Part shown: in pieces, positions 19,603 through 24,586 of the stretch
Position numbering within the stretch: the first letter of the stretch is position 1
Layout of the letters: each line of letters opens with the position of its first letter
NCBI RefSeq assembly: GCF_013122565.1
Contig: NZ_CP053258.1
Length of the DNA: 64,000 bases
From: Escherichia coli
GTDB taxonomy: Bacteria; Pseudomonadota; Gammaproteobacteria; Enterobacterales; Enterobacteriaceae
Strand: one strand, 5' to 3'
The notes under the pieces: model-generated
The model's input: only the letters and a program-made list of their open reading frames with translations
Databases searched by the model: none
Told to the model about the DNA's origin: nothing
Translations under genes and position numbers: made by a program

Positions 19603-19638
19603 GTAGGCCTGATAAGACGCGTGAGCGTCGCATCAGGC
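19603..19638. repeat. REP element between cysI and cysH
   Basis: gtaggcctgataagacgcgtgagcgtcgcatcaggc, a REP variant. Confidence 0.65.
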
Positions 19639-19659
19639 AAGGCAAACAGTGAGGAATCT

Positions 19660-20394
19660 ATGTCCAAACTCGATCTAAACGCCCTGAACGAACTGCCGAA
19701 GGTAGATCGCATTCTGGCGCTGGCGGAAACTAACGCCCAACTGGAAAAACTGGATGCTGAAGGCCGCGTTGCCTGGGCGCTGGATAATCTGCCCGGTGAA
19801 TATGTACTTTCTTCCAGCTTTGGTATTCAGGCGGCGGTGAGCCTGCATCTGGTGAATCAGATTCGGCCGGATATTCCAGTGATCCTCACCGATACCGGTT
19901 ATCTGTTCCCGGAAACCTACCGCTTTATTGACGAGTTAACGGACAAACTCAAGCTCAACCTGAAAGTGTACCGTGCTACCGAAAGCGCCGCCTGGCAGGA
20001 AGCACGCTACGGCAAACTGTGGGAGCAGGGCGTTGAAGGCATTGAAAAGTACAATGACATCAACAAAGTCGAACCGATGAACCGGGCGCTGAAAGAACTG
20101 AATGCGCAAACGTGGTTTGCTGGCCTGCGCCGTGAACAATCCGGCAGCCGCGCCAATTTACCGGTGCTGGCAATTCAGCGTGGCGTATTTAAAGTACTGC
20201 CGATTATCGATTGGGATAACCGAACGATATATCAGTATCTGCAAAAGCATGGCCTGAAATATCACCCATTATGGGACGAAGGATATTTATCGGTCGGTGA
20301 TACCCATACAACCCGTAAATGGGAACCCGGCATGGCGGAAGAAGAAACACGTTTCTTTGGTTTAAAAAGGGAGTGTGGGTTACACGAAGGGTAA
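19660..20394 (+). CDS. cysH: Phosphoadenosine phosphosulfate (PAPS) reductase
   Basis: ORF track 19507..20394; ATG at 19660 gives 244 aa [19 protein letters not shown]... Confidence 0.94.
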
Positions 20395-20560
20395 ATATTG
20401 CCGGATAAATTAAACGCCTCTGTCAGAAATGATGGGGGCGTTTTTATTTTGCGAGCAGCATTCCTGATTTTAAACGTGAACGCCGCTGGAAGAATTATCA
20501 GGTATAGAATGGCGTCGGGTGCTTGAGGCTGTCTGGCGTTAAGCATTCGCGAGGTTCCAG

Positions 20561-20665
20561 ATGGACAAAAGCCCCAGGCGATATTTCTATCAACCTGAGG
20601 CTTACGTTCGAACCCAAACAATTCGAATGTTAGTCTCTTCTTTGCAGGGAGGCAAGACATGCTGA
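20561..20665 (+). CDS. mok-like leader ORF overlapping the hok start
   Basis: 34-codon ORF whose TGA overlaps the hok ATG (ATGCTGA) in another frame, the arrangement typical of hok/mok loci. Confidence 0.3.
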
Positions 20666-20811
20666 CAAAATATGCCCTTGTGGCAATCATCGTACTGTGT
20701 TGTACAGTACTGGGATTCACGCTGATGGTAGGCGACTCGTTGTGTGAGTTGAGTATCAGAGAACGTGGTATGGAGTTTAAGGCAGTTCTCGCTTACGAAT
20801 CGAAGAAGTAG
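20659..20811 (+). CDS. Hok/Gef-family type I toxin (50 aa small membrane protein)
   Basis: Hand translation [50 protein letters not shown] has the Hok pattern (TM helix, then L-C-E-hydrophobic, then a conserved AYES-type C-terminus); absent from the ORF track because under 60 aa. Confidence 0.75.
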
Positions 20812-20815
20812 CCAC

Positions 20816-20876
20816 CACGCGGGGGTAAAACCCCGCGTACTGAATTGTGATGGTTTGGTCTCCTGCACCCTTTTTT
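20816..20876 (+). terminator. hok 3' stem-loop and T-run
   Basis: cacgcggggg-taaaa-ccccgcgt hairpin just after the stop, then ...caccctttttt. Confidence 0.5.
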
Positions 20877-21048: not shown

Positions 21049-22392
21049 GTGACTTTCTTTGATTTCTGGGGAAAAACCCGACGTGGCGAGAAAGAAGGGG
21101 GCGACGGCTATCACCTTCTTTGCTGGCATTCGCTGGATGTGGCCGCGATGGGCTATTTAATGGTTAAAAGAAATTGCTTCGGGCTGGCTGACTATTTTCG
21201 TCAATTAGGGATTTCTGACAAGGAACAGGCAGCTCAATTTTTCGCCTGGTTGCTGTGCTGGCACGATATTGGAAAATTTGCCCGCTCTTTTCAACAACTT
21301 TACCTGCCCCCTGAATTCAAGATTCAGGAAGGTGCCAGAAAAAATTACGAAAAAATCTCTCATTCAACGCTGGGCTACTGGTTGTGGAATCATTATTTAA
21401 GTGAATGTCAGGAGTTACTTCCTTCATCTTCGCTCTCTCCGCGCAAACTTAGGCGAGTGATAGAAATGTGGATGCCCGTGACGACAGGGCATCATGGTCG
21501 GCCCCCTGATCGTATGGATGAATTGGATAATTTTCTGCCTGAAGACAAAGCTGCAGCACGAGATTTTCTCCTTGAAATCAAACCACTGTTTCCGCTCATA
21601 GAGATCCCCGCATTCTGGGATGATGATGAGGGCATTGAACTTATAAAACACCTTTCCTGGTATATCTCTGCAACCGTCGTGCTCGCAGACTGGACGGGTT
21701 CGTCAACGCGATTTTTTCCACGCGTCGCACACCCAATGGATATTAAAGGTTACTGGCAGAAAACTTTAGTTCAGGCTCAAAATGCCTTAACCGTCTTTCC
21801 TCTAAAAGCAAAAGTCGCGCCTTTCACCGGAATTAATACGCTGTTTCCTTTTATTGAGAATCCGACACCGTTACAGCAAAAGGTGCTGGATCTGGATATC
21901 AGCCAGCCAGGGCCACAGTTATTTATTCTGGAAGATGTGACTGGCGCAGGTAAAACGGAAGCGGCGCTTATCCTGGCGCACAGGTTGATGGCTGCGGGTA
22001 AAGCGCAGGGTTTGTTTTTTGGCCTGCCAACAATGGCAACGGCCAATGCCATGTATGATCGGCTCGTCAAAACCTGGCTTTCTTTCTATTCGCCAGAATC
22101 TCGCCCCAGCCTGGTGCTGGCACACAGTGCCCGCACATTAATGGACCGCTTTAATGAATCACTCTGGTCCGGTGATTTAATCGGGTCAGAAGAACCGGAT
22201 GAACAAGCTTTCAGCCAGGGTTGTGCGGCCTGGTTTGCCGACAGTAACAAGAAGGCGTTGCTGGCTGAAATTGGCGTCGGCACCCTGGATCAGGCGATGA
22301 TGGCAGTGATGCCGTTTAAACATAATAATCTGCGGCTTCTGGGGCTGAGTAACAAAATCGTGTTCCCCGCGCCAGCGGGGATAAACCGATGA
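21049..22392 (+). pseudogene. cas3: Truncated cas3 (type I-E): HD nuclease domain and helicase motif I only, reading through into the first CRISPR repeat
   Basis: 447-codon ORF with GTG start; HD motif (HSLDV..WHDIGK) and Walker A (DVTGAGKTEA); the frame ends ...[18 protein letters not shown], where the last residues are translated repeat; no DExH motif II or C-terminal domain. Confidence 0.8.
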
Positions 22393-24586
22393 ATATTTGC
22401 GAATATTCGGCAGAAAGCGGGTGTTCCCCGCGCCAGCGGGGATAAACCGAGGTTGCGGCACAAATTGAGGTTGTCGCAAATGTGTTCCCCGCGCCAGCGG
22501 GGATAAACCGCCGACGCAGCAGCGGCAGCAGCGGCAGCAGCGGTGTTCCCCGCGCCAGCGGGGATAAACCGTGGATCAGTGCCGCGTTCTCTCTCCGTGT
22601 AATGTGTTCCCCGCGCCAGCGGGGATAAACCGATCGAGACGGGTACGCGTAAAGCCGAGCTGGCGTGTTCCCCGCGCCAGCGGGGATAAACCGCGATCGG
22701 TTAATTCTTCTACCTGCCTTTGCAGGTGTTCCCCGCGCCAGCGGGGATAAACCGCCCGCAATGCATTCGGGCAGTTCCTTGCCGGGGTGTTCCCCGCGCC
22801 AGCGGGGATAAACCGGAGATTGAGCCAGACGCCCGCCAGGTGTTACTGTGTTCCCCGCGCCAGCGGGGATAAACCGGAAGTAACACACCCAACCCAGGTT
22901 GCGCCAGAGTGTTCCCCGCGCCAGCGGGGATAAACCGCCTGTTTGAGCAGGCGCGAATGAACCGGACCAGTGTTCCCCGCGCCAGCGGGGATAAACCGTC
23001 AGGTAAGCCAGTGTTAGGGGCAATATAGCAGTGTTCCCCGCGCCAGCGGGGATAAACCGTCATCGGCTCGTTATTTGTAGCCAGCACTACGGTGTTCCCC
23101 GCGCCAGCGGGGATAAACCGCTTTATCAGATGGTAAAGGTGAATCAATATGAGTGTTCCCCGCGCCAGCGGGGATAAACCGATACCCCAGCGTTTCGTTA
23201 TATGACGGAAGATGTGTTCCCCGCGCCAGCGGGGATAAACCGTGCAACCAGGACGGCAGGACGCATCGCCAGATGTGTTCCCCGCGCCAGCGGGGATAAA
23301 CCGCACGTTATTATCCGATATTCACCGATAAGCGTGTGTTCCCCGCGCCAGCGGGGATAAACCGTCTGGGCGTAAACAGTCGGATAAATCGCGGGTGTGT
23401 TCCCCGCGCCAGCGGGGATAAACCGGCGGCGTGTGGGGTAACAATCAGGGAGAGAAAGTGTTCCCCGCGCCAGCGGGGATAAACCGGATAAATACAGTAT
23501 ATTCCCGCGCTCTGCTGGCGTGTTCCCCGCGCCAGCGGGGATAAACCGTAGATTTTGTCCGGCTCAGGTGCGCCGATGGTGTGTTCCCCGCGCCAGCGGG
23601 GATAAACCGATCGAGTACAACAAAAAATATACTGAGTGAGTGTGTTCCCCGCGCCAGCGGGGATAAACCGCTGTTTGCTCCTGCTGCTCATTTAGTGATT
23701 TAGTGTTCCCCGCGCCAGCGGGGATAAACCGCCTGTTCTTTTTTAGTCAACTTAACCATGCTCGTGTTCCCCGCGCCAGCGGGGATAAACCGTCTTTTTC
23801 GAGACTTGCAGCAACGCTCTGAAAGTGTTCCCCGCGCCAGCGGGGATAAACCGATCGAGTAGTTTTGAGGGTTGGTGAATTCAGGGTGTTCCCCGCGCCA
23901 GCGGGGATAAACCGCTTAATAAATGGACTTAAGCGCCCAGTATTGGGTGTTCCCCGCGCCAGCGGGGATAAACCGGGGAGGGCGAGCCGCCGTAGGTGCG
24001 GTGAGGGGTGTTCCCCGCGCCAGCGGGGATAAACCGACGCAGAAACTGGTTGAAATAGTTTACGGTGAGTGTTCCCCGCGCCAGCGGGGATAAACCGGCA
24101 GTAAATTATTTGACCTCGTTGATAATCCCGTGTTCCCCGCGCCAGCGGGGATAAACCGGTGGCGGTGTGATTGTGGGACTTATTGCCATCGTGTTCCCCG
24201 CGCCAGCGGGGATAAACCGGGCCTTTTCAGCAGATTAACCGCCGCGATTGCGTGTTCCCCGCGCCAGCGGGGATAAACCGAGAGATTTATATTCTTTCAA
24301 ACCGGATTATATCGTGTTCCCCGCGCCAGCGGGGATAAACCGCTTCAAGAATTTTTAAACGCTGGCTTCAAAATGTGTTCCCCGCGCCAGCGGGGATAAA
24401 CCGTCCCACGCGTGCCAGATGGCGCGTTTGATGGCGTGTTCCCCGCGCCAGCGGGGATAAACCGATGATAACGGCAAAGGGTACGCTACGTACAACGTGT
24501 TCCCCGCGCCAGCGGGGTTAAACTGTGATCCAGTGAGTACCGATCCGGGAACAACCGGTGTTCCTCGCATCAGCGGGGATAAACCG
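22360..24586 (+). CRISPR. Type I-E CRISPR array, 37 recognisable repeats and 36 spacers, no adjacent cas operon or leader
   Basis: 29-bp repeat GTGTTCCCCGCGCCAGCGGGGATAAACCG at 61-bp period from 22360; spacers 32 bp except two of 33 bp (after repeats 19 and 32); repeats 36 and 37 degenerate; a possible further decayed copy near 24619..24648. Confidence 0.97.

Follow-up and report, generated by a model that had tools for sequence, protein, structure and literature searches.

A probable intact copy of the known hokX/sokX toxin-antitoxin locus between cysH and cas3 in Escherichia coli

The interval between cysH and cas3 in the Escherichia coli DNA analysed here (64,000 nucleotides of contig NZ_CP053258.1, assembly GCF_013122565.1, hereafter the window) very probably holds an intact copy of the catalogued chromosomal hokX/sokX type I toxin-antitoxin locus of this species. 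The locus is already known, both its toxin gene and the difference from K-12 being recorded in the literature and in RefSeq, and the copy in the window is the same entity as the catalogued one, with no difference of substance. At the level of sequence the hok/sok elements form a complete and uninterrupted set, conserved across alleles, and this copy is probably functional. It is flanked on its 5' side by cysH, which ends at 20394, and on its 3' side by cas3, which starts at 21049. RefSeq genomes carry a 'Hok/Gef family protein' at the same site, either between cysH and cas3 or, where a strain has no cas genes, between cysH and iap.

Results

The toxin gene and its product

The toxin gene, hokX, occupies 20659..20811 on the plus strand, from the ATG at 20659 to the TAG at 20811, and encodes in 50 codons a protein of 50 residues. 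It is preceded, 6 nt before the ATG, by the Shine-Dalgarno sequence GGGAGG (20647..20652), in a position where the family alignment keeps CAAGGAG/GGAGG. A preliminary description of this DNA had proposed an intact Hok/Gef reading frame with a single transmembrane helix, an L-C-E-L-S-I-R core and an AYESKK C-terminus. All of these are present, the hydrophobic stretch covering residues 5-25, and the Pfam model HOK_GEF (PF01848) is matched over its entire length (model positions 1-42 of 42, E=6.3e-10). Aligned with HokA to HokE of K-12, a comparison which that description had also proposed, the hokX protein is 33-78% identical to the family, with HokE the closest at 78%, then HokA at 48%, and HokB, HokC and HokD at 33-39%; there are no internal gaps, only a one-residue offset after the initial Met relative to HokC and HokD.

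Finer classification places the protein apart from the named subgroups. It scores 53 bits against the HokA equivalog model NF007290 of NCBIfam, under the cut-off of 89, and 39.5 bits against the Hok family subfamily model NF007279, under the cut-off of 73, and is therefore neither a HokA equivalog nor a member of the R1-like subfamily. PGAP names it only 'Hok/Gef family protein'. The exact protein occurs on at least 1000 public contigs, variously as 'Hok/Gef family protein', 'protein HokE' and 'Putative protein HokG' (HOKG_ECO57), the last being the UniProt entry for HokG of O157:H7. Among seven hokX sequences from divergent lineages, nine codons are polymorphic and eight of these vary synonymously only (synonymous sites 35 of 150); one of the seven carries the replacement C15F. 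A single identical Hok protein is found in divergent E. coli lineages, and clear purifying selection thus acts on the protein.

The antisense RNA and its promoter

The K-12 non-coding RNA sokX (b4701, NC_000913.3 2887353-2887411) aligns to positions 20619->20561 of the minus strand, which agrees with the earlier expectation of a sok RNA on that strand around 20520..20620. SokX is thereby predicted to be an RNA of about 59 nt (20561..20619), with a single-stranded 5' tail and a terminator hairpin at 20603-20569 followed by UUUUG, the stem of which is common to SokE, SokC, SokB and the R1-type Sok. Its predicted fold has an energy of -26 kcal/mol (z=-3.7). The search for minus-strand promoter elements and a terminator, which the preliminary description had suggested, yielded, besides this hairpin, a putative Sok promoter at 20627..20655, with a -35 element TTGCCT (20655-20650), a 17-nt spacer and a -10 element TAACAT (20632-20627). 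The -35 element overlaps the Shine-Dalgarno sequence of hok, and both elements align with those of sokE, sokC, sokB and the R1-type sok. The promoter agrees with the consensus at 8 of 12 positions, under the threshold of the scan, and is invariant across the alleles compared. As far as sequence can tell, the locus thus has the cis-antisense Sok, with promoter and terminator of its own, by which hok/sok loci are recognised.

The Rfam model RF01794, named 'sok', matches the window on the plus strand at 20517-20674 (113 bits against a gathering score of 59, E=3e-26). Since this is the hok-sense strand, the model represents the leader of the hok mRNA and is unable to delimit SokX, for which the K-12 annotation was used instead. 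Pipelines that rely on RF01794 (e.g. for 'sok_15/sokX', PMC5331693) may consequently annotate sokX in the wrong orientation and at about 150 nt.

Anatomy of the hokX mRNA

A consensus promoter and terminator scan recovered only the cysH terminator (20412-20443) and missed the promoters of both hok and sok, which were positioned by alignment with paralogues. On this basis the probable -10 box of the hokX promoter is TAGAAT (20505..20510, plus strand), which aligns with TAAGAT of hokE, TATAAT of hokC, TAGGAT of hokB and TATGAT of the R1-type locus, all at an equal distance from the GGGTGC/GGCGC 5' end; no -35 element is recognisable for this promoter. The full-length transcript would extend over about 360 nt (20517..20876), its 5' end placed by homology and its 3' end at the U-tract. 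Folded as a whole, this RNA has a predicted energy of -129.8 kcal/mol (z=-4.4 against shuffles), with its 5' and 3' ends paired.

The two ends correspond to the tac and fbi elements of hok transcripts. The tac element, GGGUGCUUGAGGCU, lies at 20517..20530 and is conserved in hokE, hokC, hokB and R1-type hok; the fbi element, GGUCUCCUGCACCC, lies at 20857..20870 and makes up the last 14 nt before U6 at 20871-20876. Folding the mRNA to look for this pairing had been put forward in the preliminary description, and the minimum free energy (MFE) structure does pair 20517-20530 with 20857-20870, specifically 20517-20522 with 20865-20870 and 20525-20530 with 20857-20862, the duplex contributing -21.8 kcal/mol. 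The same pairing is predicted for three of the four other alleles, for hokB and for R1-type hok; in the MFE fold of one hokX allele the 3' tail pairs with the hok Shine-Dalgarno sequence and not with tac. In hokB the ends pair as GGGUGCC.UGAGA with UCUCA.GGCACCC, and in the R1-type plasmid locus as GGCGCUU with AAGCGCC. In both of these loci fbi is located some 350-390 nt downstream of the 5' end, so that the sequence differences between loci are compensated (GGGUGC/GCACCC versus GGCGCUU/AAGCGCC). Changes in fbi among hokX alleles likewise keep the pairing, a C to U change giving a G-U pair and a U to C change converting G-U to G-C.

Between these ends lies the ucb box AAGCCCC (20569..20575), the alternative partner of tac and an anti-Shine-Dalgarno sequence of the GAGGC box. 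The Rfam consensus structure pairs it with the GGG(U)GCUU of tac without non-canonical pairs. In the full-length MFE fold it pairs instead with the region of 20597-20601, and in the MFE fold of the 3'-truncated mRNA a local 5' hairpin takes the place of the tac/ucb stem. Downstream of the toxin gene, an 8-bp GC-rich stem-loop, ACGCGGGG-GUAAAA-CCCCGCGU (20817..20838), has equivalents in hokB and R1-type hok and probably forms the 3' terminus of the mRNA after processing. The preliminary description had taken a GC-rich hairpin after the stop codon for the fold-back element; the hairpin is indeed there, but the fbi element lies further 3', at 20857-20870. Taken together, the predicted RNA features appear to fit the canonical hok/sok RNA model, including the role of ucb, as set out in PMC9841398.

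The hairpin is also a site of insertions. In strain MB46 (L013) an element of the IS421/IS186 family lies inside the 3' GC hairpin of hokX, at the equivalent of about 20833, and parts the toxin gene from fbi; hokE (L003) and hokC (L004) of K-12 carry IS186 at the corresponding position, some 20 nt past their stops, and several genomes match the locus query only up to 20833. The hok 3' GC hairpin thus looks like a recurrent hotspot for IS186/IS421 insertion.

The leader reading frame and the missing canonical mok

A leader reading frame of 34 codons (20561..20665, plus strand) is preceded by GAGG at 20551-20554, begins with the ATG at 20561 and ends in a TGA that overlaps the hok ATG (ATGCTGA). 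It had been described as mok-like. Its length and its overlap with hok stand as described, whereas the canonical mok organisation does not: no start codon follows the GAGGC of 20597-20601 in hokX, either in the sequence itself or in the family alignment. In R1-type hok, hokC and hokB the canonical mok ATG lies 6-7 nt downstream of the GAGGC box; in the first two of these, mok begins 57 nt ahead of hok and continues in frame to the hok stop, and in hokB it starts at -58 in a frame other than that of hok. The leader ATG of hokX is at -98, where the family alignment gives no other member an ATG, and the 34-codon leader peptide has no family match in NCBIfam.

Nor is the reading frame constant among alleles. 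Of the seven hok-bearing sequences in the comparison, four (O157:H7, L011, L012 and L013) have a leader frame of only 18 codons, owing either to a TAA arising in the loop or to a deletion of 1 nt, and in L011 its Shine-Dalgarno sequence is weakened from GAGG to AAGG. Identity bands over 20590-20670 assign the leader version of the window to about 2300 genomes and divergent alleles to about 1860; the latter would by extrapolation have the short frame, as do all of the divergent alleles sampled. The 34-codon frame may therefore be viewed as a possible substitute for mok, specific to some alleles. Such a role is possible in the allele of the window, where SokX would still cover codons 1-20. We considered and rejected the -98 ATG as a conserved 'mokX/mokE' start, since, with reference to the AGCCCC box, the upstream ATGs of hokE and hokX are not in homologous positions, and many alleles have an interrupted frame.

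Allelic variation in the Sok target

The predicted Sok-target hairpin GAGGCU...AGUCUC (20597..20637, plus strand, loop CCCAAACAA) contains the GAGGC box (20597-20601) with no start codon after it. Across the seven hokX sequences the 145-nt leader is invariant except at 20602-20604 and in the loop of this hairpin, and for single changes at 20551 and 20626. The YUNR U-turn motif is absent from the target loop of the window (CCCAAAC) and present in the R1-type locus (CUGA), hokC (CUGA), hokB (CUAG) and some hokX alleles (CUAA), among them L012 and L013 with the loop CCUAAGC. The position concerned is 20615, at which T creates both the CUAA motif and the TAA stop of the 18-codon leader frame. In the window and in the sokX of K-12 this base is C, giving neither, and the allele of the window, with its CCCAAAC loop and 34-codon frame, is the common hokX allele.

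Just upstream of fbi, the 3' tail contains two segments (20841-20848 and 20852-20856) that could base-pair with the 3' side of the target loop (20610-20625). The complementarity, between 20610-20626 and 20840-20856, consists of ACAAUUCG with UGAAUUGU and of GAACC with GGUUU. At the adjoining pair, 20626/20840, the window has A/C, two alleles have G/U, one has A/U and one has G/C, a variation that hints at a real long-range helix which would mask the Sok target in the full-length mRNA.

K-12 and the distribution of the locus

From cysH through the ATG of hok (to 20661), the genome of K-12 MG1655 matches the window in every base apart from 20602-20604 and two single bases in the spacer between cysH and hok; beyond that point the two are unrelated. 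Within the sokX segment the two differ at 20602-20604 only. The sole K-12 annotation in the interval is the non-coding RNA sokX (b4701), on the strand opposite to hok. K-12 therefore has no hokX reading frame because other sequence takes over directly behind the ATG, and not through a gap in annotation; by this comparison K-12 has lost the toxin gene and retains sokX only. The preliminary description had given only a sok-like RNA (sokX) for this interval in K-12, which both the alignment and the annotation bear out, and had suggested that the intact toxin frame may be a strain difference. The difference is real and already published (PMC3903273, PMC12736100, PMC7232551).

At least 80% of the 360-nt locus is found in at least 4146 of 5426 complete E. 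coli genomes, the best matches being 99.7% identical. In the literature, the name hokX is used for a gene of the cysH-iap region in E. coli B and in adherent-invasive strains (PMC7232551); urinary isolates had hok and sokX together in 90% of cases, the rest having sokX only, as in K-12 (PMC12736100); and hok sok was present in all strains save those with cas-E2, the K-12-type cas variant (PMC3903273).

The neighbouring cas3 remnant

On the 3' side of the locus, cas3 is a remnant of 447 codons (from 21049) fused to a CRISPR repeat. Its homology to full-length cas3 ends at about 22362, and a CRISPR repeat, GTGTTCCCCGCGCCAGCGGGGATAAACCG, sets in at 22360; 35 or more such repeats, at a spacing of 61 nt, follow the remnant in the region 21049-24500. 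The window is devoid of casABCDE, cas1, cas2 and a CRISPR leader. The exact junction of cas3 and repeat was not found among the 5426 complete E. coli genomes, where no more than two records cover 80% or more of the query spanning it, in two pieces and at 92% identity. On the other side, between cysI and cysH, a REP-like palindrome (19606-19647) gives a weak match to naRNA4 (33.6 bits against a gathering score of 59.5).

Discussion

Proposed mechanism and alternative readings

By homology with the hok/sok system of plasmid R1, for which we follow the model in PMC9841398, the locus may be envisaged to work as follows. A weak promoter would drive the synthesis of a stable mRNA (20517-20876), about 360 nt long. 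In the full-length form, fbi (20857-20870) would pair with tac (20517-20530) and ucb would cover GAGGC, so that the message would be neither translated nor bound by Sok. Slow trimming of the 3' end as far as the GC hairpin (20817-20838) would free tac to pair with ucb, opening the leader and exposing the Sok-target hairpin. The short and unstable SokX (20619->20561) would then pair with the leader, over codons 1-20 of the leader frame, and direct the mRNA to decay by RNase III. Once SokX is depleted, the 50-residue Hok protein would be made and enter the inner membrane, with collapse of the membrane potential. In the allele of the window, the 34-codon leader frame ending in ATGCTGA may couple its own translation to that of hok, in place of a canonical mok; this is the weakest step of the scheme.

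It is at this step that a different reading arises, in which the locus is a regulatory relic: without a canonical mok start, hok would never be translated, and the locus would persist through SokX or by hitch-hiking. The absence of an ATG after the conserved GAGGC at 20597-20601, unlike in R1-type hok, hokC and hokB, is what one would anticipate of such a relic, as are the difference of the substitute leader frame between alleles and the retention of sokX without hok in K-12. Moreover, the five chromosomal hok loci of K-12 are described as non-functional in the account of Pedersen and Gerdes (1999) that PMC7232551 cites. However, a reading frame that is never translated should not vary as hokX does, with eight of its nine polymorphic codons differing synonymously only and one identical protein shared by divergent lineages, and this clear purifying selection argues against the relic, as does the conservation of the hok Shine-Dalgarno sequence, tac, fbi and the 3' hairpin alike. 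We regard the relic as improbable. The more radical notion, that sokX alone is real and the 50-codon frame arose by chance, could appeal to sokX being the sole annotation of the interval in K-12, but it is refuted by the Pfam match (E=6e-10), the 78% identity to HokE and the pattern of synonymous substitution; in K-12, furthermore, the sequence is replaced right after the ATG, so the frame was not merely left unannotated. With the Pfam (E=6.3e-10) and Rfam (E=3e-26) matches and the exact protein on at least 1000 contigs, a chance origin of the toxin frame and leader is out of the question, and we give this notion practically no credence.

The position of hokX/sokX directly upstream of cas3, and the correlation of its presence with the cas-E variant (PMC3903273), might also be taken to mean that it serves as an addiction module stabilising the neighbouring type I-E CRISPR-Cas locus. 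The window itself speaks against this: half of its cas3 and the whole of casABCDE-cas1-cas2 are gone, with hokX still intact; hokX is likewise kept next to iap in strains without cas genes, and K-12 conversely retains its cas genes without hok. A role in CRISPR-Cas maintenance was rejected on account of these hokX-positive arrangements that lack cas genes, the window included, and is very improbable. The reading that we favour is still that of an intact hokX/sokX type I locus.

Relationship to hokE and to plasmid R1

The closest paralogue of hokX is the hokE/sokE locus of K-12, the toxins being 78% identical. Like hokX, hokE has a GAGGC/GGGGC box with no canonical mok ATG after it, and it has an upstream ATG near -99. 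The two upstream ATGs do not occupy homologous positions, and whereas that of hokE continues in frame into hok (83 codons), that of hokX is out of frame and stops at or before the hok start. In K-12 hokE, fbi has been lost to the IS186 insertion.

With the parB locus of plasmid R1, hokX shares a toxin of the Hok/Gef family, the tac-fbi pairing of the mRNA ends, the ucb box and the 3' GC hairpin, and in both loci the antisense Sok has a promoter overlapping the Shine-Dalgarno sequence of hok. It differs in being chromosomal, and its toxin matches the R1-type Hok at roughly a third of positions, as judged by inspection of a six-sequence alignment. The R1-type mok, which starts at -57, runs in frame with hok and comprises 71 codons, has no counterpart of its start in hokX, and the YUNR motif of the R1-type target loop (CUGA) is replaced by CCCAAAC in the hokX allele of the window.

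Significance

For the strain in question the significance of the locus is little beyond correct annotation: it is an intact chromosomal hok/sok copy that K-12 lacks. Of more specialised concern are the missing canonical mok together with the allele-dependent leader frame, the fact that the commonest allele has lost the U-turn motif, and the recurrent interruption of the 3' hairpin by IS186/IS421, which cuts fbi off from the rest of the locus. We suggest, very tentatively and with considerable doubt, that the hokX/hokE branch of the family may lack a canonical mok, and that the C/T difference at 20615 sets both the YUNR motif and the length of the leader frame (18 or 34 codons). If so, common E. 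coli alleles would differ in the kinetics of Sok binding and in the coupling of hok translation, and position 20615 would be a site at which natural variation alters regulation in a textbook antisense system.
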